This document shows, one piece after another, positions 343 to 61,645 of a stretch of DNA of 64,000 nucleotides. The stretch is from Phoronis australis (Eukaryota; Animalia; Phoronida): NCBI GenBank assembly GCA_002633005.1, contig NMRA01000831.1, positions 25,092-89,091 on the forward strand. Reading direction: 5' to 3'. The first letter of the stretch is position 1. Each line of letters begins with the position of its first letter. Under the pieces are notes generated by a model, which saw nothing but the letters and a program-made list of their open reading frames with translations, had not been told where the DNA came from and did not search any database. Both the position numbers and the translations under genes were made by a program.

Positions 343-388
<46 letters not shown>
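343..388. repeat. (ATT)n microsatellite
   Basis: About 15 consecutive ATT units. Confidence 0.95.
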
Positions 389-6017: not shown

Positions 6018-6605
6018 TATTAAGTAAATATTCTGGTAGTGTGATTCCTGGTCATGGAACTAGAGAAGTAATAGGTGGCGTGGAAAGACAGGAATTCCAT
6101 ATGGACTTTCTCAATGAGGTGGTTAATACTCATCTTGTTAAATTGACCCTCATGTCTTTTAAACCATGGAAGGCCTCCGGGAAAGACATGGTATTTCCTA
6201 AGATGCTACAGGAAGCAGGAACCAAGCTTTTCCAAATCCTGTCTAATCTTTACAAGGCTAGTATTAGACTAGGCTACGTCCCAGAAACCTGAACTAAGGC
6301 GAGGGTCGTTTTTATTCCCAAACCTGGAAAGGATTCTTACTTATAAAGGGACTCCTTCATACCCATGCCATAACTCTAACTTCCTTCTTCTTAAAATGTC
6401 TTGAGAAATTGGCTATGTGACAGTTAGAAAAGCAAGATGTTATGAGCAGACTTCTGAGAAATCAGTATGTTTACAGAGCTGGATTTTCTACAGAGACACT
6501 GACTGCTCTTCATCACCTTGTCAGACAGCTTGAAAATACTGTATACAATAAAATGTTTGCTCTTGGTGCTTTCATCGACATTGTAGGTGACTTCAGGTAT
6601 ATTAA

Positions 6606-9891: not shown

Positions 9892-10106
9892 CAAGTCCAA
9901 CAGAAAACAGGTCATGGGCCGGCTTATATTTCTTTCTACCCAAAATATCCGGATCAGAATAATCATGCTTCACTGTCAGTGTCACAGTGGCTGATGACTT
10001 TGCATTAGCCAACAGTTTACAGAAGCCAAGATCTCCTACGCGTATGTTATAGTATTTGTCTATCAGTATATTGGAGGTCTTTAGGTCTCGATGTAGCACT
10101 GCTTTC
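9892..10106 (-). CDS. Kinase exon, subdomains VIb-IX
   Basis: ttccag|G AAA GCA GTG...; KAVLHRDLKTSNILIDKYYNIRVGDLGFCKLL...YSDPD...HDLFSVGL; donor G|gtaagt. Confidence 0.92.
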
Positions 10107-13100
10107 CTGGAAAATTCACCAAAAATATCATGTTTGTACGTTTGTGTAGGTTTGTACTATAATAACACAATTAGCCAAGCTGAAGTGTGTGAGAGACAGA
10201 TGCAACGTCGCTAACTCAAGAAAGCAAATTCCAGTATTTGACTCATTTTTCTATATAAACTGAAGATGATCGGTAAGTAGTGCATGGGCGACTCAGCTGC
10301 ACATGCAGTATGTCCTTTGTTTTACGCTAATGTGTAGCAGGGGACAACTAGCCAATATACAACCCACTGCACCCAAAGAGCATAGCAGTTGTCATGCTGT
10401 CTCTGAATTATGCAAGGTAATCTCAGTTGTAACACATACTCACTTGTACTCTGATTTGCAGTGGAGATGATACACAGCTTCAGCAAGTTGAAAGGCAATT
10501 CTAATACGTATTGAAAAAGGAAGTTCTCCCGACAATTCCTTCTTGTCCAACACAGTTTCCAAGTCCCTAGCCATCTTGGGATATACGAGCTTACTTCTGG
10601 CATGTTCTTTGTCTTCATAAACTGCCAGGACAGGCACAACAAAGGGATGCTTTATCCATGCTGATTCCTTTTCCTGGAAAACAGGCATTATACTATTTGC
10701 TGTTGACAATACTTTCACTAAGAACAGCAAACAACAGAAATTCTCAAATATTTTAACCTGCACATGTTTCAAGATGAAAAAAAATTGGCATTTTGACATT
10801 AAAAAATCAACCTTCAGTAACAACATGTTCGGTTTATGGGACCATTCATAAAGTACATCATCATTGGGGGGGAGGACTTTGGAAAACATAATGCTTGATG
10901 ACAGGGGACGAGGGTTCGAGGTCTTGTGACTTCACCACTAATTACATAACTAAACCACTCAAAGATGAAGGATACAAGTTGTTATAAGAAAATGAAAATG
11001 CTTGTTAAAGCAGTGTGCATTAAGGCTTTTAGATTACAATAACATCCAATTATGTAACTGGTTGGCTATTTAAAAACAAATTTGGCCTTTGTGTTAAATT
11101 TGCCGTTGTTTTGTCATTAAAGCAATGTCATCAACCAGTGGGCAATAGTAAGTAATGGGTTCAATACCAAAACAGCTGAGAGAATGCAATTAGTGGCTGG
11201 AAAGAAGGGAGGGATGGTTAGGCCGTGATGACAAGTGATGACAGAGGGGAGACACGGGTAAAAAGAGGCAAATTTTGGATGACATAACATATGAACGGTC
11301 TCTTATTAGCTGTTGAGAAATGCAAATTTTAGAGGCTATACTAGATAAGTTTGATATGCACTTCATGCAAATCAAAGGATGTTCTAAACAAAATCAAAGA
11401 TCTCACAATACTATAAATACCATGATTGTATTACATATTGCATGCATGAACAAAATCTTAGCTCCCTCCCCAGCCCCCAAAGCTGAAGATCATTTCTCAC
11501 TTAGCCTCTTCGGTCTTATAGCTATATCCTGTCAAGAAAAGATCTACAGAAAATGAGCATGGAGATATCAATTACTGCACTGATATTTTTGAGTACCATA
11601 CTCGTCCAGGTTACCGCCCATGCTCGGTTTACCGCTCATCCCCAATTTTTCACAATCGAGACTTCCTTAAAAGTGTCTGTGCTTATATGAACATTCGTTG
11701 CACAAAACTAAGATTCTAAAACGTGCGCAACTCGCTTACGGACTATATTTCAGTGACAATCAGTTTTAGCAGAACCAGGAATTTGCCTTACTATGGGGGT
11801 AAAATACCCGTATTCTCATGCACTTTATTGAAGGAAACTCAATTATTTCATTTGGCTCACGCGCGGAACTCATGTCAGCATTTACTGATCACTGAGACAG
11901 CGCTAGGTCGAATGTACTTCATTGCCGTGTTCTACCTTTCTGTGATTCCCTAGCGGTATGTGCCGTGACAGTACACGAAACATCACCAAGCTGAGCAATG
12001 AAATAAGAAAAAAGCACGAGCACACCAACATTATTTTGGACGCATAGTTTTGAATACAAGCAGACACGAGTCATTGTGACAAGCCAACTTGTCTCGCTAT
12101 TCCGTTAAACACGTTTTTAATGGCTCACTCCCGACACCAAAATGGAAGCGCCCAATCAAAAGTAACAGCGCAAGAAATCAACTTTTTACGAAGCGCAAGT
12201 CAAACATTCTATCCACATCCACGTGGTCAAAAACTTATTTTTTTGAACTCTTGATTTGCCTGATGTCTTTTTACATGATGTGTTTTTGCTTCATTATTTT
12301 TGCAGCCGGCCTAGCACCCCTATGGCCCAATAGTAGTATCATCCGACTGTTGAGCAAGTGCTTTGAACAAGAGTGGTGTTGGCTGTTCAACTCAGAAAGA
12401 AATGTACAATGTATATAAAGTGTTTCATTTTTCAAACTAGCTTCAAAGCATTTTAATGTTCTTAAAATAACTGAGGTCTGTCAATCATTAGCATGTGCTT
12501 TGGTTGCCAAAGTGTCTAGGGGGAGCAAATCTACAAAATCGTCTGCTTCCCTTATAAATACGCAGCGCACTAGCAGAATCTTGCTTGATTTGCCTTTTCT
12601 ATGAAGAAACTTGCCCTACTGAATGCAAGCAGGAATACAGGAGAGACGACGAGCAGCGACGGAGGTACATAAAAAACCCAGTCACGCTCGGGATCATGGT
12701 GCCCTGTATGTGTGCGCTATTCCACTTCAGGGAGTGCAAGTCTGTAACTTCAATCCGCCGACGTATATTTGAACTGCTATTCTTGACGTCCGACGTCAGT
12801 GTAGCTCCGTGAGGGTAGAATTGGTCCTCCGTGCAGTAAGCACACACTCCTGACTTTTTAAAAAATTCGATTTCAACCGCCCATGCTCGGCTTACCGCCC
12901 ACCCCATTTTTTTAGATTCCCAATTTAAGCGCCCGGGGCGGTAACCTGGACGAGTACGCTAATTACTGAACTTCATAAATAAAAGGATCAAAATTCATGG
13001 ATTTACTTTGGTTCTGACTAAAAAAATTCTGTTATTTGTCATACAAGTAGCCATTGTCAGCACTAATATCTTAACATTTCAAAGCATACCATTTTATACT

Positions 13101-16100
13101 GTTTTACAGACAGTTCCCCTGTGTTGTGCTGTTTCTTCACTACCACGTCTATCTCATTGAACTTCACTTTTCCTGAAAGTTGAAATCAGTCATTAGATTA
13201 TACTTTATGAAAAAAGGAAAATCATTGACAAAAGCAATGTAAAGCATTGATATTCAACTACACTTCTGTCTAGTTTATGAGGGCATAGCATGAGGAAAGT
13301 TCCTTTTGAAACAGGGCCGCTGTAGTCATATCTTTAATAACTGATCCCATTTAGTTTGGCCAAACTTGCCTTAGTCTCAAAGTGTACAGAACGGTTTTGC
13401 ACTTTTTTATATCCACTTTGGGCCATAAAAAATGGTATGAAACAAATCTATATCTTACCCTAAACATATTTACAATGTTACAATTTTATTTCCTCCATTA
13501 CCATTTTCTTAATTAGTAGCTCAATTTTTGCCATGCGGAATATTACGCAGATTTTGCGGAATATTACGCAGTCAGTGCGGAATATTAAGCAGATTTTGCA
13601 AAATATTACGCACTTGCAGAATACTGTGAAAATTTTGTGGAATACAGTGCAGTTGCGAAATATTATGTATATTTTGTGGAATAATAAGCATAATAATAAT
13701 TTATTTTTAAAAATCAATGTGACAGTTGCAGAAGGGTTCCACAAACAGAAAAGTCTTGCCCAGGACTAAAATGCTTAAATTTTCTCCCGGTCAAATAAAC
13801 ATGAACTACATTCCCATCTCAATTTCACTTGAAAGTATAATGTGTTCACTAACAATAATTAATCAATGTGACAGTTGCAGAACGGTTCCACATCCGAAAC
13901 GGTTTCGCAAACAGAATAGTTTTTTGGAGCACTCAATTTTTTTGATTCTCATGCCCAATCAAGTTAAAATGCATTAAATAATCAATACGATTTGAAAGTA
14001 TCAATGCGACAATCCTAATAATAATTAGTTGATCAATGTGACAGTTGCGAACCGTTCCGCAAACAAGTTATGTGGAGCTCTCAATTTTTTAAAATTTCTT
14101 CTTGCACATTAAAGTTAAAAGGTATTCTATTCTCAATAACACAAAAATATCAATGTGTCAACATGTGTCAATAACTAATCAGTAGGGAACATGCGGAATG
14201 ATATGTGATGCAGAAACCTACCTCAAGCAGGCTCGAGAAAAATTGACATTTTGTCTATGCAATTTTACCGCTTTTGGTAGAATCTTAACTCAAGCCATGA
14301 AAATTTCAAATCTTAATGTGCAACAAGCATAAAACATAAAAGTATCAGAATTTCTATTCTAACAATAATTACTTAATAAAAGTGACAGTTGCGGAACCGT
14401 TTCGCATGCGGAACCATTCTGCATGCAGAACCGTTCCGCATGCAGAACCGTTCAGCAAGGAGAACGATTTCCCGAGCAGAATGGTTTTGTGGGGTATTTG
14501 TTTTACCCAATAAACTTAAAATACATTCCATTATCAATACCACTTGAAAGTATCAATGTGACAACCCTAACAATAATTACTTGATCAATGTGACAGTTGC
14601 AGAACCGTTACGCATGCAGAACCGTTCAGCATGCGAAACTGTTGCGCATGGGGAACGATTTCCCAAACAGAATGGTTTTGCAGGATATTTGTTTTTCAAA
14701 ATCAAATTAAAATGCATTCCAATATCAATACCACTTGAAAGTATCAATGTGACAATCCTAACGATAAATAGTTGATCAATGTGACAGTTGCGAACCGTTC
14801 CGCAGACAATAGTTTACTGGAGTTCAGAATTTTTTTCAATTTGTTCTTGCACATTAAAGTTCAAATATATTCTATTCTCAATAACACATGGAAATATTAA
14901 TGTGTCAACATGAACAGTGATTAATCAGTGGGGAACTTGCTGAATGATTTGTGATGCAGAAACCTACCTCAAGCAGACTCGGAGAAAAATTGACATCTTG
15001 TCTATGCCATTTTACCGCTTTTGGTAGAACGTTAACACAAGCCACAAAATATTCAAATCTTAACGTGAAACAAGCATAAAACATAAAAGTATAAGAATTT
15101 CTACACTAACAATAATTAATAGATGTGACAGTTGCGGAACCGTTCCGCATGCAAAATCGCTTCGCATGAGGAACGATTTCCCAAACAGAATGGTTTTGCG
15201 GGGTATTCTTTTTGCCCAACAAAGTTAAAATGTATTTCATTCTCAATACCAATTGAAAGTATCAAAGTGACAATCCTAACAATAATTAGTTGATCAATGT
15301 GACTGTTGCATGCTGAACGGCTCCACAAACAATGGCTTTGTGGAGCTCATCATCATTGTAATTATGTTCACATTCAAAAAATGTTGAGTACAGACCATTT
15401 ACACTTTTAAGCAAAAGAGATGAGCTTTTCAAAATTTCTTATATTCCTACATCTCTTCATTTGATTGCATAACTTTTGAAAAATATACAGACAATAGCGG
15501 ATTTGCAGCGCAAACGAACTACGCATTGCGCATGTGCGAGTTACTTCCTGCGCAAAGGCTCATGGGATAGCTTGTGGTCAGGCATGTCTTGAGCAGGCTG
15601 GATAGTGTGTGCATTTGGAGTGATTTGCAAACTAAAAACCATGTTTCATTTGCTTTATAATACCAAGCAAGTCCTCTCTCTCGTTTGTAAACACAGCGTA
15701 GCTATGATCAGTGACCGTGTGACCGAGGACACGACTGTCGTCATGTTCAGTATTGGGGCTATCGGCGTTGATTTCGAAATCTCCTCCGGTTTCAGACAAG
15801 TTGATAGTTCTTGGGTTGCTTAACTTTTGTAGCTTTCCCCGTGGATATGCTAGAGACGTTAATTTTAAGAGGAAACTCCGTCGGAATGTTGTTCTCATAC
15901 GTCTTTTTTCCACCAGGAAAATGTTCGCTGCACACACGATGGTCCCTAGGCAATTACATCGCCTGGATGCCGCAGGGGCGATAGTACGTCCTCACAAGAA
16001 GTTACTCATTTCAAAATACAGCAAATAAAATCAAATGAACCATACATATAGGAACACGGAGTTATAATTAACGCATACCACGAGTCTGGATACAATTTAG

Positions 16101-19100
16101 TCAGCAAAACTTGTCATGAACAAATCGATGAAAATCTGTCGCGGTTTGCTCGAGTTTCTCTCAGTTACCGGGTGCCATTTTGAGGAAGTTACGTGAAATT
16201 ACGCATGTTGACGAATAAAAAGTCTAAGGGACACAGATCTTACAAGTTTCACCCGAAACCTTCTCATGCTATTTTACAAGTGTCACGCGCTAGCGTCACG
16301 CGCTTCGCTGAGTCTCGCGCTAAGCCCGGCTTTGCCTAACTCACGTGATTCTGTGTGACATGCTTTATGGTTATCGCGCACGCGGTGATAAAATTAACGG
16401 CAACCAAAAAAGTGAAGTTGTAATTCCGCGCCAAAGTCAACTTAATTCTCACAACTAAGCTTAAGATATGTATAGAAGTAGAAAGGAACAATGATGAAAG
16501 TAAGCGTTTTTTAAATGATAGTTTTAAGTGTAGAATGTATTTTTGACGAGGTGAAAACTCGAAATCGGTAATCCAAATCCGGTCACGACCCATTTAAAAT
16601 ACACTGAAGTAACGAAATGAGTACAGAAAGCGAATGGAAGTATTGTAGCCCCTATATGGCCAACCGAGGGGCTACGTGTTGCCTACTAGATGGCTCCGCG
16701 TTGGTTTGAATGCGCTAAATCTCCCCTTACTCCCAGCTCTCCTAATATTGTTTATCCATTTTTCACGAAGTTCTTGGTTTGCAGGGAACACATAAAAACT
16801 CAGATTTTTATCTCTCTTGTTGTTTTTGAAGCAGCCAGGAACACAACAAGAGTATCCGCCGTAAGTTTTCTTCGCGCTCATACCGCGTATTATGCTTGAT
16901 ACTATGGCCACTTTCGGAATCCTGACCACAGCACCCACAATGCACCATTTTAACCTAATTTCAATATGACGTCGCTGCAAATCCGCTATTCTCAAGACAC
17001 AGCCACTAGGAGGCGCCAGAGTAGTCAAGGTAGTCACAAATCCTCGTCAGCCATGCTCTATACAGTAAAAGCATACATACCAATTCTCACAATCATCCTT
17101 AGAACGGGGGGGTGGAGGCCAAAAAACAGACTCGAAAACAGTAAAAATGGCCACTAGGTGGAGCAAAATACCTCGAATCTATCCGAAAACGGTAAGATAG
17201 TGTCATCTCACTAATAGATGCCAAATTTTATGAAAATCTGTTGAGGACCTTTGAAGATACAGAGGTAAACGTAAAAAACAAAATTGCCACTAGGGGGTGC
17301 AACGGTCGATCGATACATACGAATATTGTCATCATTCGTTGTCAACATCATGTGAATATACTTGTTACATCCAGTAAAAATCCTGCAAACAGTTTAGGAG
17401 AAACAGCCATGGCCGCAAAAAAAAACTGCCACTAAGAGGCGCCACTGTAGTCAAAGTCGTCAGAAAATCATTGTCAGTCACCCACAATAGGTACATATAC
17501 ACCAATTTTCAAAATCATCAGAGCTGTTTGCTTGATAAAAGAGCGGACGTCAAAAAAAAAACAGACTCAAAAACAGTAAAAATGGCCACTAAGTGATGCA
17601 AAGAACCTTGAATCTGTCTTAAAACGGGAGGACGGCATCATCTTACTAATATATGCCTAACTGCCAAATTTCATGAAAATCCGTTGAGGGCCTCCAAAAA
17701 TACAGAGGTAAGAATAAAAAACTAAAATTGCTACTAGGAGGCACACCGTCGTCAGCTTGATAGGCAAACATCTGTCAAATCTCATCAAGATCCTGTGAGA
17801 GATTTAAAAGATACCGCTGCGGACGCTAGATGCCCAGACGGCCAGACAGAGATGACGGCAATATGCGACTACACATAAATATGTGGGCGCATAAAATTTT
17901 TTGAGCCAAGACAATGACAAAAGTCTGTTAACAGTTACATAAGCAATTAAATTCAATGTCAGAATTATAAGCAGGTATCACTGTCAATTACTACACCAGT
18001 AATTCATGCATGCATATCATTTTTGGCACATCAACTTGTGTGATAACTTTGAAGCCATATATATGAAACCATGATAACTTCATTGTCTACTAATCGCTAA
18101 AGTTGGTTTGAAATTTTGAATTAACATTGTAGAAGCATAGATTTCATGACATGTCGTCTTCTCAGAATATTTCCTTTTGCCCAAATTTTGGCTCAATACT
18201 CAGATTGACCTGGTATTAAGATGCAACTTGGCAAATCAACTTGGTACTTTGAAAGCATCAGCTTATCATTTGTAAAGAGTAGCATACTCTTGACAAGCAT
18301 TTTTTCATCTTCTTAACACAGGAGCTCTGGCAAAAAAAGCAACCAAAGTTGTAAAAAAATTACCATCAAAAACTGATCCAAAACCACCTTCTCCGATTTT
18401 TTTCTCATCATTAATGCCAACGTAACGATCAAACTCGTCAAAGTCTTTGAACTGATGAAAGGGGTGGAAGTCACTTGCAGTACTAGTAGACGCACTCCCA
18501 GGTACTTCAGGCAGCACGAGTGTAAAACTTGAAATACAAGAAAAAATAGAACATTATTGCCCATAAAAGACAATAATAATCCGTACAATTTTTGTGTTTA
18601 TAAATTCATCATGAAAATAAAGTAAAATTACTTGATTTATATTTTCCATTAAATTGACTTTAGAATTAATTTTGCATGGATTAAATTGTATCAAATGTTA
18701 TAATTTAATTACTTATCATTATAACTTCTATCAAAAAATAATGTATTGGACTTAAACATAACAGAGTTGATTTCCGATAATGTTTGAGAAACAACTTTAT
18801 CACAATCTATTTTGCCCGGGGTATGCCACGAGCTACGATGAAGAGTAAAACAAGATGAGAATTGAAAGTAATGTCCTTTATTATGACGTAAGTAGAAGAA
18901 CTAAATGAAACTCAGCAAGATGGGCATGGAAAAAATTCAGAATACAAAGGTAGGTCTTGCAGATGACGAAGTAGATGGCTTAATGAGCTACACCACGTTG
19001 AATTGAATAAAGGAAATATGAGTGACCAATCAGGTGTCTAGTAGAGAAATGTATGAATACAAGAGTAGACCCTTGAGGATATAAATAGAGATGAGTAATG

Positions 19101-22100
19101 CAAATTAAACCCTAAGAGTTGATATAAAAATAAAGTGTCAAAATAATGATGATCAATGCATTTACCAAGTTAAATTTAATTTATTTAACACATATAAAAT
19201 ATGTCGCTGGTTCAGTGTGATCTTCCTGATGCAACAGGTGTTAATAAGCACTGCTTCAACAGATTCCTTCGGTAGCTAATAAGTTGGTTTACTTATTATA
19301 TTAGAATTGGACAAAAGAGGTCTCACTCAGTTTCTTCAGACTGGATGTCACCAAGTTTTTGTGCTAGTGGTGGTGCTAGAGCACCTTGCTGAGTAACAGT
19401 CTCATCTGAAAGCATTATATTAAAAAATTGATTATACACAGTACGTAAATTTCATGTCCATCACATAAAAGTGCAGTCTCTAACACAAATCTGACAGGCC
19501 AGATCTATCCACATAGCAAACAAATCTTTCAAGGGATGCCGAAGATACAGCACATAAACTCAGTTAACTGGAGACCAGTGCCCGGTTGCATGAAGTAGTC
19601 TCAAACAGGAACTCAACTTAGTTCCCTAAATCTACCTCTATTTGTGGATTTGTGAAAACACCTGATGTCCTTCATTATGCTGTTTTAGTTTTAGTACTAA
19701 GTCAACTTTTGGTATTTTTACATTAGTTTTAATACTAAGTCAACTTTTGGTATTGTTACAAAGAGAGAGTGAAATCGACGTTGAATTCTCAATATTTTTG
19801 AAAATGTATAGGGATCTTTTCATGCAATGCTCCTCACTTTAGGACTAAGTCCCTATTTAATTTCATTGAATTCGAGGATCAGTATCATCAATCAAAAGAG
19901 GAGCTCATAACAAACATGAATTGAAAAAAGATCACAGCGAAAAAATCAGAAAAATTCCACCAGAGACAGCAAAGCTATATGGTAGACCTGTGTATCCCCA
20001 AACTGCATTTGAGTACTTTGGACACCACATTTGCAGATTTTTCAGCAAAATTGCCGATTTTTACATAAAGACCAAATATCGAAAATTCGAACTTCCAGCT
20101 TGTTAGTCTATTCAGCTGGTACTTTTCCTAGTTAACTTGCCTCTGAAATAAGTTTTAAAATACACGAAGTGAATTGATCACCAATTATCAGAATTTAAGA
20201 GACGGTGCCCTCATTAATGAAAAGATCCAGTTAATCAATAGACAGATTCCTTACTGAACTTAAATAGTTATGTTAATACATGCTGCAACGGTAATATACA
20301 CCCTGAATCATGATAAGTTGGATTCACAACAGACAGTTCCTTGCTTCAAAAGTTGTGCTCATTTCTTAACCCAAAAACATATCTGCAAAAAAATGTTCAT
20401 GAACCTGCACTGGACAATGTTTTGTACCAGATGACATTTTCTTAACCACTCTCAAGAGTTTGGAATAATTATTCATTGCAAGTGTATGTGAACACGTACC
20501 ACTACACTGCCTGTGAAAAACCTCGAGTTTTACCATCGGCTAAATGTGCCACAAAGTCAGTGCAGTCACCATGTGCGCAAGAAAACAACACGCCACACAA
20601 CTAGCAGAACAAAACTGACAGTCCCTTCCATAAGACAATGTCATCCTTTGGCATAAAATGGCAAAAACAGATGTTCCCTTCTTTCAGAAGCTACTTTCTT
20701 CACAGCTCAGAATATGCTGCTACTCATGCTTTGCCTCTTTGCCAACAGTACATATTTAGCCAGAAATAGCCGAAACTGGACAAAGTAAGCAATCCACAAA
20801 TCACAGAAGTCATTGCTTATAGGTGAGGCCTGTGACAAACATACAGATAGAAGAGGCCTCGCGATTCGCCGATTATCAGGCTATTTCGAGAACGAGATGA
20901 AGCGAGTTTTCCGAGTTCGTAGCTTAACTTTTTGGATAAAATAAAGCTTTTACAATAAATATCTTTTAATATCTAACTTTAAAATCTTTTTGCTTTTCCA
21001 TTTCGACTACAAATCAGGGTATTAAGTGAGAAACAAACGGATTAATAATCTCTTTTGAATTAGCCAAATTTGCATATTTTTGTCTGGTCCTGCGTACTTG
21101 CGCACTGGAGGCTTGGTTTCCGTGTGCATCCACATTTTTGCACATGGTACACAGGTCTGATATGGCTCCAAAAACTAAAAAAAAAGAAGAAATGGCTGCC
21201 ACAATGCGATCTAAAGTCCAATTTTAATAAAAAACCATAGGCGTCACACCTTTTACAAAAATAACAAAACAAAAAAATTATGATACAGCAACACACAAGG
21301 GGAAATTTCATTTCACCGAGTAACAAACAAAAGGTATTTAAAATCTAACATACTAAGCAGAATCTACCATGGAAATGAATACATATTCAAGAAGATGACT
21401 TAATAAATGGAAGTAGAAAAACAAAAACTATGATTAGATGAAAGTTTCTCAAATTGCAAGCAAATAGAATTTTCAAATGTCATCAAAAGTGATTGACCTA
21501 CATACCCATGGATCTAGTATTTTGAAAGTCTTCTGTATTTCTCTTTTTATGAATACCCATCTCATGGCCCACTTCTTCTTTTTCTCTGCAAATGTTTAAA
21601 AGTGAAAGTAAGAAGATTAAAGTGTGTGTTTTCATCTAATAACGGAAAACGGACAGAATTCGCAAAACATGAAAATACTTTTTGTATTAATGTACCATTA
21701 TTATTTTTACGTAAAAACCTTTTTTTGAGTAAAAATTTTCATTTTTAAGAAAGGTACATTCATAGCAAAATAACCCTTCGGTCAATTTTAATGAAACTTT
21801 TTTTAAATGAAAACTTCACCAGTTACCTCAAAAACGCTGTTAGGAATTTTCGATTAGTCTTTTCATTTGGTTTCTATGACAAATCAACTCGCAAAACCAA
21901 AGGTATCTTTGTAAAAAACAGAAGTCATATTCGTCTCTGTTACATTACCCAAAAAATCGGCCTTTATACCGAAAATCCAAACAGTGTTTTAGAGACTGAT
22001 GACTAAATATTAAATTTTTAAAGTTTCAGCGAAATCCACCAAGCCGTTTTCGAGAACTCGTGTTCCTAAGTTCATATAAAGTCGATTTGCCGAAGCCGTG

Positions 22101-25100
22101 AAAAAAACAATTAAACTGGAGTGAGTGAAAATCTCAAAGTCTTCCAGTAATTATTCGGTGAAAACTTGTTTTCGGTACACATAGCCTATACAGGCCTTAA
22201 ATATGTTTGCTATTTCACCATTCACTCGCAATGTCAACTGATTTTGCAATACCTAATTAACTTATCATTAAAATGTACCATTCCCAGCTAACTCTTACAG
22301 TTGTTTGCGACCTATTTGACCTACTTCATATAAATAGGTCACAGTTCATTGTTATACTCATAGCCAGTAGACGTCACGTGCTGGGAGACTGATACGAAAC
22401 TAAGTAAGAAATGGATGACAAAAATCAAATCGGTGGTTAAAGCATGTCGTTAGCACGAGATTGAAACATGGAAATGTCAATTTATTAATCGAATGAAGGA
22501 ATTAGGGTGAGGATTTATCTCTTTTCACAATTTGCTGTGTAACATTTGTTCTCAATGCCAACGGTTGTATGCATGTAGACGCACAACTCCCTTTGGATCA
22601 AAACTGTTTTTTCTTTGTTTTCCTCAGCACCATTCTACCATAAGAACACCTCGTCTACTCAATGTTATGGCGATTTTGTGAAAGGACTGAGGGTATACAA
22701 AGCGGTTCTGTACCTGGCGGGAAATTCGATTTGATTGAAAGCCCTTTCACCTTGGATAAGTAGTAAACAAAATATCCACGCGGTTGTGCGGTTCCAAGGT
22801 GGTTTTGTTAAATCTTTTTTTTTCTCGCTACGCAGTATATATTTTGTATTTTAAGTTCCCCGAGAATGAAGATAAGGTATTTTACTAGACACATGAAATA
22901 TTGTAAAAATGTCCATTTTTCATGAATACGGAATAAGATATCCTTAATGAAGTGATTTTCTTGAACTAGTCTTCAGTCCATCATTGCACCCAAACCTGTT
23001 ACCACCCGTTGGTAACAACCTGCGCCCATCAATCCTCGGGGAAAACATGCCAGAGGCATGCTTATTCTGATGAAGGGGGAGGGTGTTGTGACAGTCAAAA
23101 AGCCTTTCTGTGTTGTTTGCCAAGTGGCAATTACCTCGTGACTGAATTGTTTGGATGCTTGGCTACTGCACGGCCAACCCTAGTTCATGTCTTGGGAGTA
23201 GGCAAATTCCAGGACACCAGGGTATTGTTTAGATCTGCAGGCAGGAGGCGTGCCTGCTACGAAGACACATAGATGAATAAATAAATAGCCACAAGGTGTC
23301 ATGAAATATGTAAAATTCATTTGAAAACAAAACGGCATTTTCGTCTCCTTTCTAAAACACTGTCGAATTTCATGAAAATTCATAAAGGAATGAACTCCGA
23401 AGACACAGAGGCAAAAGTAAGAAACATAAAATTGCCACTATGGAGGATAATGGAAGTTGGATCAATCCAAAATTCGTCATCTGTTTTCAGCTTCATTGAA
23501 ACACATCTGCCAGTTTCCATCAAGATCGTGTGCAGGTGGTTTGCCCACAGTTTGACAAAGAGAACAAGAAATTGCACAACATATATAGAGATCACAACGT
23601 AGAGATCACGTTTATTTTTTGGCCAAAATATGAGTGCAATGATTCATTGACCATTGGTCACACTATAGATTACTCTGATGTTCAGATCTTGGACAAGGAT
23701 GCTGCTACCATCAGGCTCCTCATAAACGAGGCTATGCATATTCGGCTGAATCACGTTAAGCGCTATTTGAATAGAAAGATTGGTTTATTTGAGCTCCAAC
23801 TGATTTCTGGTCTAGTTTCCCCTCACAATGCATTGTGTGCCTGAGCAAACTACCTGTCTCAAACCTAATTTTACCTGACTGGAATATTGTGAACTTTTGT
23901 CTTAAGAATGGTACAGTGATAATGAATCGAAACGTAGATTGCTATAATGTCTTTGTTTACAAGAGCACTGATTCTAAAGTTTGTGCTAAAATAAAGAAGC
24001 AGTCATGTTGCCACTAAGTGACACAACAGCAGTTAAATTTATCCAGATGTCCTTATCTGCAAGAATTTTCATAGGAACAAACTAGACAAATTTCACAAAG
24101 ACCCTCCAAGTAAAGAGATATGATCGCAAAGTAGTCATTGGAAACCTACTGAGTTCTTATCCAAGAGTATGTTGAACTTTATCAGTACAGGCTACAACAT
24201 TGAAAGTCTAGTCAGCAATACGAACACAACTGAAAGTAATATTAAGTATCTATGGCTACAGATGCAGGTTTGACTTACTTTTCTTCCACGCAGTGGTCAC
24301 CAGAACCACTGTAGAAAGCAGATTGAGGTTGGTTTACCACATTACTCCTGTAAAATAAAAATTTAAATAACACGTAGCACTACAACTAATTAACCGCAAA
24401 ATCAGCACAAGGGAGCTTCTGAAGTAGCTTTGCACCGATTGCGCGGCTGAGGGCAAAAAAACTGGCCAAATAAAATATGACCAAAATAGTGTGATTAAAA
24501 AATACAATATTCCTTGAGTAAACTAAATTATTTACTGGTGTTCTGTGTCAGTTTCTTTTTGCGCCGATTCTTAAATCAACTTTTCTTCCCTCACAAGGTT
24601 GTGTAAAAGTCACAAAAAATTTCAGAGCTGGTTTCATTTCGTTACAAATTTTAAGTATTTTAGTACCAGCAAACTGAATTTCAGAATAAATTTCGCTGCT
24701 GCGAAGCTGTCATCATCTCCCATGGGATGTTGTAAGAATTAGGACATGGCGTGTGCATATGTCACAAACTTACTGTTTCCAAAACAATGACAGATTTTTC
24801 TTTGTAACAAAAAGCGGGGAATAATGCAAGAAAATGATGTTCATAAGATTGTTTTCACTAAACAGCTGCAACAGGTAAGGTGAGTGTAGATTGACTCCCA
24901 GATTTTGCATGCACCCCCGCCGGTTTTTAGCTCTATAGATTGATATAATTTTCATGGCAAGGTGACAAGCAGAAATACACAGTTTGTGTGAAACATTGGA
25001 GTCTAACAGAGCTCAACACAATGTGGTTAAACTAGCGTTATTTTGACGATAGGCTTCTTACGGCTAGTTGGCTGGCTACATCTCAAGTAACTGCTTTTTG

Positions 25101-52100: not shown

Positions 52101-55100
52101 GCAATCCTGAGACACGAGCTCATCAGTCCTGACGAAGACTTCGCAGGTGGATCGTTAAGTTTCACAGGCTATCAGTTTGAACAGGAATACAGTGATGAAG
52201 AAATACTAGATAGTCGCCGTGAACAAGCTCAAACGACAAAACGTAAGGATAGTTATTTGGTAAGCCGGCATTCGTCAGGCACTGTCGATGCCGGACTGCA
52301 GGCCACTGACACGGAGATGTTTCACGGCCTCTTACTTGCTATTGACAGCGTATTTTTCATTCTTCACTACTGCGAGCCACTTCCTAAGCATTTCAGACTC
52401 TCGAGGACGTCCAAAAATACGATATACCCGCTTTCCTCGCAGCTGCATAGTTCGGGCAAGAGGGAATGATGCACCGCAACATAGCGGCATTCACTCTACA
52501 GACGAACCACTGACGTCGTTTCTCACCTTCCTCACAGGTTAACGCGACACCTCTTGGCAAGGTAAGGTCGACCATATGCGAGGTGATGTGGATATAGACC
52601 GATTAAGACGGCAAAAAACACTAATTAAATCAGGTGGCATTCTCCTTTAAGCCTTGTTTGATATGAAGTGGATGTGAAATGGCTGGAGCCAGAGGCCAAA
52701 AAACACAAATCTAGTACATGCAGGGGAAGCTGTGATGGTAGCTAGCATTGGACGATGCCCAAACAACCACAACTAACACCAATTTTGTGATCTTGAGTCA
52801 CTTCATTGGCTGCAGCTTGCTTTGCATTTCAAATATAAAGCACCCCCAGCAGGTGGTGACGGAGCATAAAGAAAAATACCAACTGTAGGCATCCAACTTC
52901 AGAACATGTTTAGCAGGTTCTTTAAAGATCTCTACACACATGTCTTGTAATCTGACAACAAAAAAGTTTGCCGCACACACAAAAGTTTAGCTCCACTTTA
53001 GCTGTGGTGGGAACAGGTAACGCTGCTTTTTTGACATGAATGAGCCAAATCCGACCGATCTTGTTGTCTACTTGAAATTGATGAAACTGAACTCACACAC
53101 CCTCATGAAGCTTGTGGTATGCAACAACTTGCAGGCATACTCAATAAGATTCATGGAAAGACAAAAACGATCTCATCTTATTACAAGCTGGACCACAAAC
53201 AACACTTCCAGAGTGATTCAAGCCTAATCAATTAGAAACCGGCGGGACTTCACTCAGCACTTGTCTGGATGTTCTCATTAAAATAGACTGAATTTTGCAC
53301 TAGTTGCTGCTTTCATTCAAGACAAAATCTAGATTATTACTAGAGCAGGAACAATTTTGTTGGGCTTACCTTGACGTCAATGTTTTTTGTGCACCCAAAA
53401 CACTGCCTGAGTTACCAGAGCAAAGCACCTTTAGTTCATCTGTAGTAAAGAATAGGCACTTAAATTGCAATCATTAAGTAATTGTTCATGTTAACAAAGA
53501 CATGTGACTAATAGCTCATTCTCAAACAAATCCCACCTTCAGTTAAGCCCAAAGAAGGACTTCTGAATAGAAACAGTCAGGAAAAACAACCAAGCAGTAT
53601 GATTTGGGTTGTAGTACATGTGAAAGAAAACCCTTTAGACCATATTGTGTCATATAACATGAAACATGTTCTAGACTTGCCCCTTCAACGTACGATAATG
53701 TTCTACTAATTCAGCAAAAAATATAGCCGACAAGTGAAATTCCATAATGTTAAATTTCTCCACAAAAATAATAGAAAATTCCAGAACGGATCTTCAAAGG
53801 CTAAAGGTCAAGATAAAGGAAGCTTGTTTTCTTATTTGCTATTGTGTCTCGTTGACGTAATTGTTAAAAGTTTAGACAAAGTGTACTCAATTGTCTTTAA
53901 AGAAAATGCTAAGATATCAACCAAGGTGACTGTTGAGATAGAGTTCATGACTCCTGAGTAACAGTGGTTTATTATACTTTTCACTATCTTTTTAGTATCA
54001 TCCAATAAACAGAAACAGTAACAAGCTCAGTGGTCATTTCTTTTGAATTCACCATGGTTACAAAGACATAGAATAAAAGGTGAGAAACAAATTGCCACAC
54101 AGGGCACAGTGGTAGTGGAATTCATCCTAAAGTTGTCGCCATCCACAGTTATGGTACTCAGCTGCGTTCAAAATACACGCTGGCCTGGTGGCCCGGGGTC
54201 AGAGGATTTGTGGCCAGGACACTAACAGGTGGTTTACAGTTAAACCTGGTTTAAACTGTACTTAGACCAGGTTTAAAGATAATCTGCATTTCATAAAGTT
54301 GGTTTAACTTTTAGACCAGTGGTCTAGTAAAACCTGGTTTAACTCCAGTTTAAACCTGGTCTAAGTAAGTTTTCATTTCACCAACGAGGTCTATATTCTT
54401 TAGACCTGTATTAAGATCTTAAACCATGTACAATTCATTACCTTAGACATGGTCAGACCCAGGTTTAACTGTTAAATATGTCAGACTTGCATGGTATAGG
54501 TACAAGTGAATGATGCCGCGGAGTGCATTTGCGACGCAGTTTTAGAGTGAAAATGGACTATTTTCAATATTCAGTTTTACTATGACACAAGATCAAACGT
54601 AGCAGGGTCAGATCCAGGATTTTTTAAAGGGGGGGGACGGTCAAGGACTTTTTGAAAGGGGGGCCAAGTCAACAATTATAGATTTGATATCACTAAAATC
54701 AAGGGAAAAAGGGGACTCCGGAACCCATGACCCCCGTGGATTCGCCTATGCGTAGACCACTACTTGCTGGAGTGTGCCCAGTGGATTTCTCTAAATACGA
54801 CTGGTCGAGCAGGGCGTCATCGTCGTAAGCACTACGGATTTGACTAAAGATAGTATCTTCTGATTCTTCTGGCTGAGTTCCACCTCCNNNNNNNNNNNNN
54901 NNNNNNNNNNNNNNNNNNNNNNNNNNNNNNNNNNNNNNNNNNNNNNNNNNNNNNNNNNNNNNNNNNNNNNNNNNNNNNNNNNNNNNNNNNNNNNNNNNNN
55001 NNNNNNNNNNNNNNNNNNNNNNNNNNNNNNNNNNNNNNNNNNNNNNNNNNNNNNNNNNNNNNNNNNNNNNNNNNNNNNNNNNNNNNNNNNNNNNNNNNNN

Positions 55101-58100
55101 NNNNNNNNNNNNNNNNNNNNNNNNNNNNNNNNNNNNNNNNNNNNNNNNNNNNNNNNNNNNNNNNNNNNNNNNNNNNNNNNNNNNNNNNNNNNNNNNNNNN
55201 NNNNNNNNNNNNNNNNNNNNNNNNNNNNNNNNNNNNNNNNNNNNNNNNNNNNNNNNNNNNNNNNNNNNNNNNNNNNNNNNNNNNNNNNNNNNNNNNNNNN
55301 NNNNNNNNNNNNNNNNNNNNNNNNNNNNNNNNNNNNNNNNNNNNNNNNNNNNNNNNNNNNNNNNNNNNNNNNNNNNNNNNNNNNNNNNNNNNNNNNNNNN
55401 NNNNNNNNNNNNNNNNNNNNNNNNNNNNNNNNNNNNNNNNNNNNNNNNNNNNNNNNNNNNNNNNNNNNNNNNNNNNNNNNNNNNNNNNNNNNNNNNNNNN
55501 NNNNNNNNNNNNNNNNNNNNNNNNNNNNNNNNNNNNNNNNNNNNNNNNNNNNNNNNNNNNNNNNNNNNNNNNNNNNNNNNNNNNNNNNNNNNNNNNNNNN
55601 NNNNNNNNNNNNNNNNNNNNNNNNNNNNNNNNNNNNNNNNNNNNNNNNNNNNNNNNNNNNNNNNNNNNNNNNNNNNNNNNNNNNNNNNNNNNNNNNNNNN
55701 NNNNNNNNNNNNNNNNNNNNNNNNNNNNNNNNNNNNNNNNNNNNNNNNCAAAGGCATTACAAATTGCATCTAATGAGACAGACTTTGTTTCAGTTTTATT
55801 GGTTAGGGTGAGAATAATTCATTTTGAAACAGAACGCTCAGTAATAAACGCCAAAATGGCAACTCGCAATCCCGACTTAGGACGAGCTAGAGCTCATCAG
55901 CCCCGATTTCACAGGTGGATCGTTAAGTTCTACAGGCTATCAATTCGAACAGGAATACAGTGATGAATAAATACTAAAGAGGCGCCGTGAACAAGCTCAG
56001 ACAACGGAACGTATGGAGTTATTTGGTAAGCCGGCATTCGTCAGGCACGGTCGATGTCTGCTGGCCACAGACACGGAGATGTTTCACGGCCTCATTCTTG
56101 CTATTTACAGTGTACATTTCATTCTTCACTACCATGAGCCACTTCCGAGGAAGTAAAAAAAACGTTATACCCGCTTTCCTCACAGCTGCTTAGCTCGGAT
56201 AAGCGGGAACGATGCACCGCAACATAGCGGCATTCACTCTGCATATGAACCACTGACATCGCTAGCGTCGTTTCTCACCTTCCTCACAGGTTAACGCGAC
56301 ACCTCTTGGCAAGGTAAGGTCGACCGTATGCGACGCGATGTGGATATAGACCGATTAAGATGGCAAAAAAGACTAATTAAATCGGGTGGCATTCTCCTTT
56401 AAATCTGGTTTTGTTAAACCACCTTCATGAAATTGGCTGTAAAATTTCACATATAGGCCTTATGTGGTTGTGGTCTCGTATTTAAATAACTGGCCTAGCG
56501 GGCCAGCACATTCACTTGCTGAAGCTCAAACACAAGTAATCAGATAGAAATGCGTTAATTTGAAAAATTTAAGGGATAAGGGATCATGAGATACAGCCGC
56601 GGCTGAAAAAACCTGCCGCTAGGAAGCACTACAGTAATCCAAGTCTTTCAGAACTCGTTCACATCCCTCCTCTTTCCAGTAGGAAAACATATGGCAATTT
56701 TCATTTATAGTCTTTAAAATAGTTTAACTGATAGAAAGAGAAAGACACCACAGACTCAGAAATAATAAAATTGGCCACTAGGTGGTGCAAATCTGCCCAA
56801 AACTGGGAAGGTGTCATCTGCCAAATTTCATGAACATCTGCCAAGGAGATTGCATAAAAAAGTCGAGAACAGCAGTTGAAGTCATGACTAAGGAAGTCTT
56901 GATGGTTATATTATATATTAAAATCATTACAAAAACAGGAAAAGAGATAGCCGATTCCATCACCGGAACCCTTTTCAAAAGGGCCCCATACAGCTTAACA
57001 AGAAGTGTTATTTCATAAGACCAATGCCGAAACCGTTGATATGTGCCCACCAAGTGTATCGCATACAGCACAAATAGTACAGGGATGATTATTATAGTTA
57101 TTTTAAACATTCCCAATAGAGGGAGGAACACCTAGAAACTATATGTGAGAAAAACAGATGTCTAAAAGAAAATTCAGTGATTATACCTTTATATGCCTTG
57201 ATCTCTTCAGCCAGTGTCTTTTTACTGGAACTATCCGCATACTTTCTGAGCAATTCCAGAACATCCTTAGGTTCTTTTGTAACACGCTCTATTAAGTTAA
57301 ACAAACCATACACGTCTCTGCATTTGTCGACGTCACTAGATTCTCCAACTTCTTGCAGATTCAGAAAATATTTTAAATCACAAACATCATCCTCTAGCAG
57401 ATTGCCAGCAATTTTATACAGGAGGCGCCTAAAACACAAAGAAAATCAATAAGAACCAGTTTCAAACAAATCTATAACTGTAATTACAGTACATCAGCAA
57501 ATTCATTACACAGAGAAGTTTTGGGACATGGAAGTGTGCATTATACATGAAACATCATGTGCTCCCCCTATCCCCGGGTTATGCAGAGGGTACACTGACC
57601 ACATGGGCATTTCATTGATATTGACCTAAAAGAATTGGGCAGGGCTTCTGCCCTATCCCTGGGTTACGGCGGGGGTGCGTCAACCACATGGGTATTCATT
57701 GATGTTGACCTAAAAAATCGGGCAGGACTTGAGCCCTATCTTTGGGTTATGGCGGGTAATTATGCCGGACTCATATAGATTTCATTGATGTTCACCCAAA
57801 AAATGGGCAGGGATTCCAACCCCATCCCCGGGTTATAGTGGTGGTCTGCAGGCCAAGAGGGCATTTTGTGAGCATTTAGGTCGAAGAACCGTATCATAAT
57901 TTGTGGCTTGCAAAATAAAAATCGTGCAATAACTTTTTACACTTGCGACGTGGTGTGAGNNNNNNNNNNNNNNNNNNNNNNNNNNNAAACTGAATTGAGT
58001 TGAGCTGTCTCAAATATCCAATATGAACTCAAGGTTTAAAGGAGAGTGCCACCCGACTTAATTAGTGTTTTTTACCGTCTTAATTGGTCTATATACACAT

Positions 58101-61100: not shown

Positions 61101-61645
61101 TGTCTACTACTTCACATGAAGACACAAACAAAACATCGTCAGACAGTACACCACTAGTTGGCGAGTCGTTTGAGTTGTGGTAGCTGAATTCCCAGTAAAC
61201 AGATATTCACAAGGACATGGACAAATGTCACAAAGGTACAAAAATGGGATGGGCATATAACAGAGCGTGGCTTATTAAAAGTGCAAATTTTGGAGTCATG
61301 GACACTGATCTGGACATGTACAGTATACTAATAATTCTATCAAATTCCAATTCACCTGTACTTTGAAATTCTTTTTGGATGATGTTGATCTGATATCCCA
61401 ATTTTGTTTAACAGGCGATGCAGATTAGCACATTCCAGCAGTTCAGCCAGGATTGCTTGCCCATCTACTGTGTTCTTTTCCTGACGGAAGATTAATGCAT
61501 GTAGTTCTGTTGCATTTTTAACATTACTCAGGTCACTTGGCTCATAAATATCAGAGCACAAAAAAGTAATTTTTCTCAAGTCACTTGGCAAAAGTGCTCC
61601 ATTCAATGTTGCCCACACATAAGTCTTGTCTTGTCTGCCAGCCAT
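9892..61645 (-). CDS. Spliced gene encoding a tandem DED-DED / linker / IRAK-Pelle-like kinase protein (13 exons mapped; 3' end unresolved)
   Basis: Exons 61356-61645, 57187-57428, 53370-53439, 41403-41525, 37349-37417, 25896-25964, 24279-24347, 21506-21585, 19327-19405, 18364-18527, 13090-13172, 10444-10673, 9892-10106. All are GT-AG; junction phases 2,1,2,2,2,2,2,1,2,1,0,2 match; 594 codons open. Confidence 0.8.
10444..10673 (-). CDS. Kinase exon, subdomains III-VIa
   Basis: EKESAWIKHPFVVPVLAVYEDKEHARSKLVYPKM...LPFSIRIRIAFQLAEAVYHLH; phase 0 acceptor tttccag, donor AA|gtgagt. Confidence 0.92.
11596..12959. mobile_element. Tc1/mariner-superfamily (pogo/Tc2-like) non-autonomous TIR element
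   Basis: TA flanks; TIR CCATACTCGTCCAGGTTACCGCCC / GGGCGGTAACCTGGACGAGTACGC. Confidence 0.75.
13090..13172 (-). CDS. Kinase exon, subdomain II with the catalytic Lys
   Basis: ctttcag|GA AAA GTG...; GKVKFNEIDVVVKKQHNTGELSVKQYKM; donor ATG|gtatgc; phase 1 to 0. Confidence 0.88.
13533..13690. repeat. About 21-bp minisatellite (GCGGAATATTACGCAGATTTT-like)
   Basis: Roughly 7 degenerate tandem units; they account for the spurious ORFs here. Confidence 0.85.
13712..15345. repeat. Composite tandem repeat (ATCAATGTGACAGTTGCAGAACCGTTCC units, 14-bp GCGGAACCGTTCCGCAT subrepeats, ~745 bp higher-order duplication)
   Basis: GTGATGCAGAAACCTACCTCAAGCAG occurs at about 14205 and 14951; the TCAATGTGACAGTTGC motif recurs many times. 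Confidence 0.8.
15496..16987 (-). mobile_element. ISL2EU/Harbinger-like THAP transposon remnant
   Basis: TIR AGCGGATTTGCAGCG / CGCTGCAAATCCGCT with AT flanks; THAP N-half CCVPGC...FYVFP...KW (16690-16880), C-half VCSEHF...PTEFP (about 15870-15940) and a DHSY motif. Confidence 0.7.
17000..17896. mobile_element. HINE/Helentron-like GCCACTAG element, 3' part
   Basis: Repeated GCCACTAG subunits; ends GTGGGCGCATAAAA. Confidence 0.7.
18364..18527 (-). CDS. Kinase exon with the Gly-rich loop
   Basis: FTLVLPEVPGSASTSTASDFHPFHQFKDFDEFDRYVGINDEKKIGEGGFGSVFD; acceptor tatttcaag, donor G|gtaatt. Confidence 0.9.
19327..19405 (-). CDS. Linker exon (DETVTQQGALAPPLAQKLGDIQSEET)
   Basis: ctttcag acceptor, GA|gtgaga donor; phase 1 to 2 fits both neighbours. 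Confidence 0.72.
21506..21585 (-). CDS. Linker exon (EKEEVGHEMGIHKKRNTEDFQNTRSM)
   Basis: tttgcag acceptor, G|gtatgt donor; phase 2 to 1. Confidence 0.7.
23640..23815 (+). mobile_element. Penelope-like element, GIY-YIG endonuclease C-terminal fragment
   Basis: GHTIDYSDVQILDKD...RLLINEAMHIR...LNRKIG matches the PLE C-terminal pattern H-x-I-D...IL...EA-x-HI...LNR-x-x-G. Confidence 0.7.
24279..24347 (-). CDS. 69-nt linker exon (SNVVNQPQSAFYSGSGDHCVEE)
   Basis: tattttacag acceptor, AA|gtaagt donor; phase 2-2. Confidence 0.72.
25896..25964 (-). CDS. 69-nt linker exon (DQVFTTLKSDMGNYFDDGHIEK)
   Basis: tattttacag acceptor, GT|gtaatt donor; phase 2-2. Confidence 0.62.
25987..27545 (+). mobile_element. 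Gypsy LTR retrotransposon 5' part (LTR, gag, zinc knuckle, protease), degenerate, copy A
   Basis: LQLPKFNEKQDDVENFLQRFKGYAKTSGW, CFLCHKAGH knuckle and VLVPRDKG protease-like motif; duplicate of 41543-43120. Confidence 0.75.
27640..28660 (-). mobile_element. BEL/Pao retrotransposon fragment, copy A
   Basis: VLLKTVKA...FFDEGSQRSYL aspartic protease; SHFFVVKDSATTTLRLVFAA (start of RT). Confidence 0.75.
29748..34518 (+). mobile_element. Degenerate Kolobok transposon (THAP transposase remnant on +, KolX remnant on -)
   Basis: TTAA TSD at 29744-29747 and 34519-34522 (empty site GCTTAAAGCACC near 37685); imperfect TIR AGTGTAATTTGCAAGGTCCAA / TTGGACCTTGCAATTTCCTCT; THAP remnant ...ICSDHFEDGCFD at about 30014-30258. 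Confidence 0.8.
32355..32748 (-). pseudogene. KolX / P2X7 intracellular-tail-like Cys-rich protein remnant
   Basis: CTWGNCQ...ERVCCQEV...CIVEHGG/FKPVYINRGVLETA...*HVAYRQFQKWVHGH...RVVILACAVACI*AFYP, with stops and a frameshift; an acidic N-terminal exon is likely at 34050-34283. Confidence 0.78.
37349..37417 (-). CDS. 69-nt linker exon (SNVVNQPQSAFYIGSGDHCVEE)
   Basis: tattttacag acceptor, AA|gtaagt donor; phase 2-2; 2 substitutions relative to 24279-24347. Confidence 0.7.
37467..38985. mobile_element. Full-length HINE/Helentron-like element
   Basis: Both ends present (AATGCGCCCAC ... GTGGGCGCATAAAAA); absent from the equivalent site in duplication copy A (about 24400). Confidence 0.8.
39693..40572. 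mobile_element. Tc1/mariner-superfamily MITE
   Basis: TIR CCGTATTCGCCGTAATAAC / GTTATTACGGCGAATACGG with TA TSD; empty site CAAG-TA-ACTGCT at about 25088. Confidence 0.9.
41403..41525 (-). CDS. 123-nt linker exon (AQVFTTPQSDMEIHCDYGHHRVRYHLKIGHVTTADGHIEE)
   Basis: tattttgcag acceptor, GT|gtaagt donor; only the phase 2-2 frame is open. Confidence 0.68.
43200..45745 (-). mobile_element. BEL/Pao retrotransposon fragment (gag, protease region, RT start) nested in the Gypsy element
   Basis: KLSKLSLPKFS, DNFGEPKKIITAHI (gag), VDMLIGANSAW...IGGAVLSG, YCDVFQEHVNKGYIEVVP. Confidence 0.8.
45959..46926. mobile_element. hAT-like non-autonomous TIR element inserted in a HINE copy (about 45750-47490)
   Basis: Ends CATAGGCGGATT / GATCCGCCACTG with G/C-rich subterminal runs; no clean TSD seen. 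Confidence 0.5.
50955..52646 (-). mobile_element. Kolobok-type THAP element, copy 2
   Basis: TTAA flanks at 50951-50954 and 52647-52650; TIR AGGAGCATGCCACC / GGTGGCATTCTCCT; reverse complement of copy 1. Confidence 0.85.
53370..53439 (-). CDS. First linker exon after DED2 (DELKVLCSGNSGSVLGAQKTLTS)
   Basis: ctttactacag acceptor, AG|gtaagc donor; only phase 1 is open, matching the DED2 donor. Confidence 0.72.
54888..55748. other. Assembly gap (N run)
   Basis: Run of N. Confidence 1.
55749..56398 (-). mobile_element. Kolobok-type THAP element, copy 3 (cut by the gap)
   Basis: Ends GGGTGGCATTCTCCT-TTAA; homologous to 51977-52646. Confidence 0.82.
57187..57428 (-). CDS. DED2 exon
   Basis: tgttttag|G CGC CTC; RLLYKIAGNLLEDDVCDLKYFLNL...DKCRDVYGLFNLIE...LELLRKY...EEIKAYK; donor G|gtataa. 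Confidence 0.88.
57560..57870. repeat. About 85-90 bp tandem repeat (CCCTATCCCCGGGTTATG...TTCATTGATGTTGACCTAAAA), about 4 units
   Basis: Motif recurs at about 57566, 57651, 57734 and 57820. Confidence 0.8.
57960..57986. other. Assembly gap (N run)
   Basis: Run of N. Confidence 1.
58040..59479 (+). mobile_element. Kolobok-type THAP element, copy 4
   Basis: TTAA flanks at 58036-58039 and 59480-59483; TIR AGGAGAGTGCCACCC / GGGTGGCATACTTCT; THAP remnant KHLRVCGWHF. Confidence 0.85.
60311..60960 (-). mobile_element. CR1/L2-type LINE 3' end
   Basis: ORF 60640-60945 MYRCINGLAPAYL...YSTRSS...GKRSFIYAAAITWNSF...FKINIKKWL, followed by a 3' UTR and (TAAA)n tail. Confidence 0.85.
61356..61645 (-). CDS. 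First coding exon, DED1
   Basis: MAGRQ...LLPSDLRKITFLCSDIY...VKNATELHALIFRQ...LAELLECANLHRLLNKIG...PKRISKYR; donor AG|gtgaat; upstream tttcag acceptor suggests a 5' UTR exon further up. Confidence 0.88.

Follow-up and report, generated by a model that had tools for sequence, protein, structure and literature searches.

The question raised by this locus is whether a pair of death effector domains (DEDs) and a kinase of the IRAK/Pelle type, encoded 39 kb apart on the minus strand of a phoronid contig, belong to one gene. The window, that is, the whole stretch of DNA analysed, covers 64,000 nucleotides of Phoronis australis (assembly GCA_002633005.1, contig NMRA01000831.1, positions 25,092 to 89,091) and is animal-type DNA, with ~39% GC and long, repeat-rich introns. 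An earlier note, made from the letters alone, had joined 13 exons of the minus strand, which run from 61645 to 9892, in frame into a tandem-DED kinase. Locating the exons by their boundaries, we reproduced this join exactly: it comprises 594 codons with 0 stops, every intron is of the GT-AG type, and intron lengths reach 12 kb. On balance, we lean slightly towards one animal gene whose product would combine a tandem DED, a flexible linker, and a kinase of the IRAK/Pelle type; docking of the DEDs would cluster and activate this kinase. The narrower claim, that the DED and kinase halves are one gene, with or without a DED-only isoform, appears likely to us.

The first exon (E1, 61356..61645) carries the ATG, DED1, and the DED1-DED2 junction (residues 1-97), and ends in a phase-2 donor. 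DED1 begins no more than ten residues after the ATG, as is expected of a prodomain. E1 matches the Pfam DED family (PF01335) and no other, with an E-value of 4.7e-6 and 27.2 bits, and a protein language model (Atlas) placed DED1 with DED clusters at 0.94. All of its sequence matches in the PDB were FADD (8/8), at weak E-values of 0.05-0.4. The two DEDs were folded separately as single-sequence models, with a predicted local distance difference test (pLDDT) of 68 for DED1 and 49 for DED2. When the DED1 model was searched with Foldseek, the FADD DED ranked first, with no E-value under 0.001. With VIA-align, the top match was the caspase-8 tandem DED (Z 7.0, root mean square deviation 3.8, 77 aligned), where a Z under 8 is middling and PYD and CARD chains nearly tie with caspase-8. 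In this alignment, residues 6-97 of the model correspond to residues 2-102 of the caspase-8 tandem DED, and thus run through the junction. We regard the predicted DED of E1 as well supported, both by sequence and by the modelled fold.

The second exon (E2, 57187..57428) would encode DED2 (residues 97-178) and ends in a phase-1 donor; when the donor is read through, the frame stops after residue 206. E2 also matches PF01335 only (E-value 8.2e-7, 29.6 bits), and its assignment to DED comes from this match plus its 21% identity to DED1. At the position of the FL motif of FADD, the alignment presents FL in DED1 and YF in DED2, and the RxDL motif was found in neither domain in the alignments. In caspase-8, the FL motif of DED2 drives filament growth (PMC11074299; papers are cited throughout for the portions covered), and a tandem DED behaves as one rigid, polymerising unit (PMC11874512). 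The intron at the DED1-DED2 junction is in phase 2 and falls within the junction Arg codon. CASP8 and CFLAR share an intron at their DED1-DED2 junction, the position of which is not given in the covered portions of PMC5668880.

On the kinase side, E10 (18364..18527) holds a pre-kinase segment and the glycine-rich loop GEGGFG, E11 (13090..13172) the beta-2/beta-3 strands with the catalytic Lys (VVVKK), and E12 (10444..10673) the alpha-C Glu, the HPF motif, the LVY gatekeeper segment, and alpha-E. The last exon of the model, E13 (9892..10106), holds the HRDLKTSN catalytic loop, DLG, the activation segment ending in YSDPD, and subdomain IX. The catalytic residues are thus present: the G-loop, the beta-3 Lys, the alpha-C Glu, the HRD-x-K-x-x-N motif, and the Asp of the DFG motif, which here reads DLG; no kinase exon contains a stop or a frameshift. 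E13 matches Pfam Pkinase with an E-value of 7e-16. From fetched homologs, most of them plant receptor kinases, 35 kinase domains were excised and combined into a profile, to which the joined E10-E13 align at 126.8 bits, with subdomains I-IX covered and no gap at the three junctions. With the closest complete domains retrieved, they share ~25-32% identity. In addition, P0002, a 167-residue fragment on a 619-base ENA contig, is 36% identical over 127 residues spanning both E11 junctions. Because the profile alignment is gapless and the P0002 match crosses two junctions, the three kinase splices are considered sound.

The profile of E10, E12, and P0002 was then compared with the PDB: the top 41 of its 158 matches were plant receptor kinases, IRAK4, or IRAK1, and no RIPK was among the top 60. 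For E12 alone, 5/5 PDB kinase matches were a plant receptor-like cytoplasmic kinase (RLCK) or IRAK3 (E-values 0.017-0.36), the LVY of E12 aligning with the LVY of the plant RLCK and the LIY of IRAK3. A Tyr gatekeeper in an L-V/I-Y motif is a feature of RLK/Pelle/IRAK kinases; two reviews that we searched did not contain it. In the profile database search, which had 3865 candidates, 14/14 matches were plant proteins with kinase domains, five of them named receptor-like kinases. Judged from its sequence, E10-E13 is a kinase of the RLK/Pelle/IRAK family, a placement made by search rankings. Searched against 1.84 billion representatives, E12 gave five matches, all kinases without a DED by Pfam, the best being P0002; the homolog searches also gave 50 metagenome loci with up to 41% identity across the whole exon. 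P0002 shares the unusual HPF motif, and the end of its likeness coincides with the end of E12, pointing to an intron in common and to a broader, unnamed subfamily. The IRAK/Pelle-like call made in the earlier note therefore holds, on the PDB profile ranking, the plant kinase matches, and the E12 matches. As for its two DED calls, the first is borne out by Pfam, the language model, PDB sequence, and fold, the second by Pfam only.

What lies between the two halves is a series of seven predicted linker exons. E3 (53370..53439) starts in phase 1, ends in phase 2, and is followed by E4 (41403..41525), E5 (37349..37417), E6 (25896..25964), and E7 (24279..24347), all phase 2-2, and then by E8 (21506..21585), whose donor, if read through, leads to a stop at residue 339, and E9 (19327..19405). 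When the splice-site scores are trained on nothing but the domain exons, E3-E7 all come within the first 10 of 361 candidate exon loci in the span, E3 being 10th, whereas E8 ranks 40th and E9, the weakest of the linker exons, 210th. The E10 acceptor lies at the 99.4th percentile and the E2 donor at the 98th, E2 being part of the training set. The acceptor of E10 is strong and no in-frame Met precedes the kinase, so the kinase must have exons further upstream. E10 begins in phase 2, in agreement with the donors of E3-E7, and E3 is the only linker exon that the frame requires: joining E3 to E10 keeps the kinase frame, while joining E2 to E10 does not. Moreover, no AATAAA was found within 1.3 kb of E2.

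Transcription was assessed on 6100-26050, the E6-E13 side of the model, by mapping three RNA runs matched by species label. Repeat-derived reads dominate the mapping of this region. In bins not repeated elsewhere within the window, the depth at E10 was 2.9/2.1/1.6 on one strand in the three runs, versus 0/0/0 on the other, and at E13 it was 0.6/2.3/0.8 versus 0; the unique intron bin beside E12 (10762-11427) had a depth of 0.1/0/0. With most stranded libraries, RNA from the minus strand would give reads in this orientation. The kinase exons appear to be transcribed on the minus strand.

Several results weigh against a single DED-kinase gene. Both DED scores are below the curated PF01335 cut-off of 35.9 bits, and DED2, whose model is poor (pLDDT 49), had no DED match in the PDB sequence or fold searches. 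E13 taken alone does not discriminate among kinases, NEK2, PKC, CDK, and PAK following one plant kinase, and no IRAK was among its top 60 PDB matches. The stretch preceding its APE-equivalent lacks the usual Gly-Thr, which makes the P+1 segment atypical, and subdomains X-XI were not found in window positions 1-9891. No read or contig joins the DED exons to the kinase exons, and no splice joint of the model is among the 15 of 160 joints listed for 6100-26050. Furthermore, 20086-21417, which is unique and intronic in the model, has a one-strand depth of 2-6 in all three runs, as deep as the kinase exons. In the homolog searches, no full-length relative carrying both DED and kinase was found, neither with DED1 among longer proteins (0/118 candidates) nor with E13 (0/34). 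In the linker, E4-E7 are all in phase 2-2 and E8 and E9 can be dropped together, so that E4-E9 are dispensable for the frame. Shuffled sequence gave an equally long phase-consistent chain in 8/60 cases, with similar top scores (mean best 10.0 versus 11.5 for the real sequence), and the plus strand gives a phase-consistent chain of 6. Because shuffles reach equal chain length, joining in frame proves little, and we dropped the phase-consistent exon chain as evidence for fusion. On the side of one gene, none of the 159 minus-strand open reading frames (ORFs) of at least 46 residues between E2 and E10 matched a caspase, death, or other cellular domain, and the sole Pfam match was a retrotransposon gag piece; this empty scan is weak because Pfam scans of single exons are insensitive, having missed the kinase exon E12.

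The chance level of the in-frame chain is also what would be found if the locus held two same-strand neighbours: a cFLIP-S-like DED-only gene, ending at E8 (339 residues) or by read-through of E2 (206 residues), and an IRAK-like kinase gene whose own first exon lies 5' of E10. A stop lies right after the E8 donor, with one-strand reads across the next 1.3 kb, an in-frame ATG lies just 5' of the weak E9 acceptor, and DED-only isoforms exist, cFLIP-S being an example (PMC5668880). The reads at 20086-21417 fit a DED-only 3' end after E8 as well as the 5' end of a separate kinase; they could come from the 3' untranslated region of a DED-only isoform, from an unmodelled exon, or from nascent RNA. 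Yet the minus strand of 19300-21500 contains no AATAAA, a separate kinase gene would have no death-fold domain, and the phase 2 of E10 fits the donors of E3-E7. We consider two genes unlikely; if the halves were separate, they would be two ordinary lineage-specific immune genes. For the single transcript proposed in the earlier note, the open frame, the GT-AG introns, and the strong E10 acceptor stand, whereas the join is not above chance; likewise, the RNA reads gave low one-strand coverage of the kinase exons but no model joint among those listed.

Within a single gene, the state of the kinase has to be considered. The phase-1 donor of E13 had no downstream partner exon within the window, and the stop codon was likewise not located there. 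For subdomains X-XI, the best gain among 244 candidate extensions was 8.8 bits, with runners-up at 7.5 and 7.0, and 44 downstream ORFs were also negative. A next exon at 6105, with a plausible end of subdomain IX, was rejected for its purine-rich acceptor, a gain near that of the runners-up, and its position adjoining a repeat. As introns here reach 12 kb and 9.9 kb are left, subdomains X-XI may lie beyond the window. Alternatively, the kinase could be mainly a scaffold or brake, weak or truncated after subdomain IX, with the tandem DED capping FADD/caspase-8 filaments as cFLIP does. The failure to find X-XI among the extensions and downstream ORFs, the DLG in place of DFG, and the atypical P+1 segment are in line with this, as is the resemblance of E12 to IRAK3, which is a pseudokinase. 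Also, cFLIP blocks the growth of caspase-8 filaments (PMC11074299). Nevertheless, none of the Lys, the alpha-C Glu, HRD-x-K-x-x-N, and the metal-binding Asp is missing, the kinase exons are free of stops and frameshifts, and with 12-kb introns a last exon beyond the remaining 9.9 kb would be unremarkable, so we find such a brake quite improbable. Separately, a 67-codon minus-strand ORF without Pfam match lies behind a good acceptor at 1435-1635; it could be a late exon of the DED-kinase gene, though it has no in-phase join to E13.

The other end of the model was also considered. AG acceptors lie just 5' of the E1 ATG and the frame is open back to 61669, and for the former reason a further 5' exon is possible. 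The model might then cover only the interior of a larger multidomain protein, with extra N-terminal exons or an undetected linker domain such as TRADD-N, belonging to the invertebrate expansions that combine a DED, an adaptor, and a variable effector. DED+TRADD-N+kinase and DED+DED+TRADD-N proteins have indeed been tabulated (PMC8195603). Conversely, the position of DED1, so close to the ATG, is that of a prodomain, none of the 11 ORFs upstream of E1 had a Pfam match (0/11), and the linker consists of short, duplicated exons without which the frame is kept. No TRADD-N match was obtained with Pfam in the ORFs holding E4 and E8, the other linker exons being in ORFs below the scan length. We judge a longer protein of this kind very unlikely.

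We then compared the candidate, read as one tandem-DED kinase, with known systems. It resembles IRAK1-4, Pelle, and Tube-like proteins in the order of its parts (N-terminal death-fold module, linker, C-terminal kinase) and in its kinase, which ranks with IRAK4, IRAK1, IRAK3, and plant receptor kinases. IRAK/Pelle proteins are defined by a single N-terminal death domain, which binds MyD88/Tube, whereas the N-terminal domains of the candidate are two and match DED only; its kinase is also divergent. With two DEDs and no death domain, the candidate would be recruited by a DED scaffold rather than by MyD88. With caspase-8/10 and cFLIP it shares two adjacent N-terminal DEDs, the fold match of E1, and hydrophobic residues at the FL position. 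It differs from them in having no caspase domain in the 159 ORFs of the span or the 44 downstream ORFs, in the missing RxDL, and in its weak sequence matches, which go to FADD and not to caspase-8. RIPK1 and RIPK2 also join a kinase to a death-fold domain linking to receptor or NLR scaffolds, but RIPK1-4 have the reverse order, with the kinase N-terminal and the DD or CARD C-terminal (PMC11507063).

The nearest architectures are the invertebrate DED+TRADD-N+kinase proteins (e.g., XP_019854336.1 of Amphimedon and PIK43142.1 of Apostichopus; Kaur et al. 2021, PMC8195603), which carry a DED and a kinase on one chain and reflect a death-fold adaptor shuffled onto an effector in particular lineages. 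In these proteins there is a single DED, often after a Death or CARD domain, together with TRADD-N, and many have SH3/SH2 before the kinase. Among the 36 places where "Pkinase" occurs in Figure 4 source data 1 of that paper, at least 18 rows have a DED and a kinase on one chain (at least 17 from Amphimedon and at least one from Apostichopus, all with TRADD-N), and none of the 36 listed is DED+DED+kinase. The table covers TRADD-N proteins only, and for "DED+DED" places 25-37 of 43 were covered. No tandem-DED kinase architecture appears in the covered portions of PMC9334734, PMC2246300, PMC5668880, and PMC8331091, and a caspase-8-type tandem DED on an IRAK kinase was found neither in the literature searched, which includes few subscription papers, nor in the homolog searches. 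In an annelid, a caspase with a kinase prodomain has been reported (PMC11463336). The earlier suggestion of a new architecture was thus overstated, since DED with kinase is already in PMC8195603, while its tandem form has no counterpart among the matches listed. A chain with DED and kinase is already known; what differs, to judge from the predicted protein, is the tandem-DED version on an IRAK-type kinase.

If the candidate is one gene, as we favour, its tandem DED would dock onto a DED scaffold or join a DED helical assembly, and the kinase domains, tethered by a linker of 200 residues, would cluster and activate each other. The clustered kinase, which we presume to be complete, with its last exons beyond the window, would then relay an immune or cell-death signal. 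Sensors of the NLR and RLR type that bear a DED are present in invertebrates and absent in vertebrates; the scaffold might be one of these, or FADD/caspase-8. Clustering is proposed by analogy to caspase-8 filaments and to the Myddosome, a death-fold assembly within which alone IRAKs are activated (PMC10317173, PMC8403095). DED-NACHT proteins are known from amphioxus, sea urchin, and Nematostella (PMC2575513), and DED-RLRs form an invertebrate clade (PMC8662601); the effectors proposed for both are caspases (PMC2575513, PMC8662601).

A bolder proposal, which we regard as doubtful, is an invertebrate DED-based Myddosome. The kinase would be the dedicated output of DED scaffolds, polymerising through its tandem DED, converting a death platform directly into a phosphorylation signal in competition with caspase-8, and a DED-only isoform ending at E8 would be a built-in inhibitor. 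Already as a tandem-DED IRAK-type kinase encoded by one gene, the candidate would provide DED sensors or FADD with a kinase output, in the way that RIPK2 is the kinase output for CARD-bearing NLRs and IRAK4 for MyD88. It would also allow a test of whether proximity within DED filaments can switch on a kinase, in the manner of death-domain helices.

The linker region was shaped by an intragenic tandem duplication (24242..43524), identified by self-BLAST and exon alignments, in which 24242-27947 is a 93-94% copy of 37312-43524. It doubled the E4-E5 pair into E6-E7 and carries retrotransposon remnants. E4 is the paralogue of E6 plus 54 bases, with the frame kept, and E5 is identical to its duplicate E7 at 67/69 bases. 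In E6, a 5-base insertion has weakened the donor (76th percentile), and the read depth in its bin is 0-0.3. E6 is probably skipped in splicing, and the duplicate copy may be decaying, given this insertion and the near lack of reads. The two duplicate blocks may also be haplotypes assembled in tandem.

Further repeats and transposons are found in the window. A minus-strand ORF with a THAP domain (16675-17046; Pfam E-value 1.9e-9), with further ORF pieces downstream (15500-16900), likely represents a DNA transposon in the E10-E11 intron; 15500-16900 has a read depth of 24-64 on the two strands alike, with other copies as its probable source. Retrotransposon remnants include a DUF1759 match at 45419-45595 (minus strand) and a reverse transcriptase at 47807-47971 (plus strand); the ORF at 44830-45279, tried as a linker candidate, was rejected, as it sits in the remnant near the DUF1759 match. 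Four segments (6602-8319, 50951-52656, 55749-56406, and 58030-59447) are 79-88% copies of one repeat, in both orientations, and are heavily covered by RNA reads from elsewhere. Lastly, units of ~450 bases, 77-93% alike, form short tandem arrays at 4542-5692, 16999-17748, 34519-36255, and 37687-38986, and this family shows a strongly one-strand RNA depth, >200 at 16756-17421.

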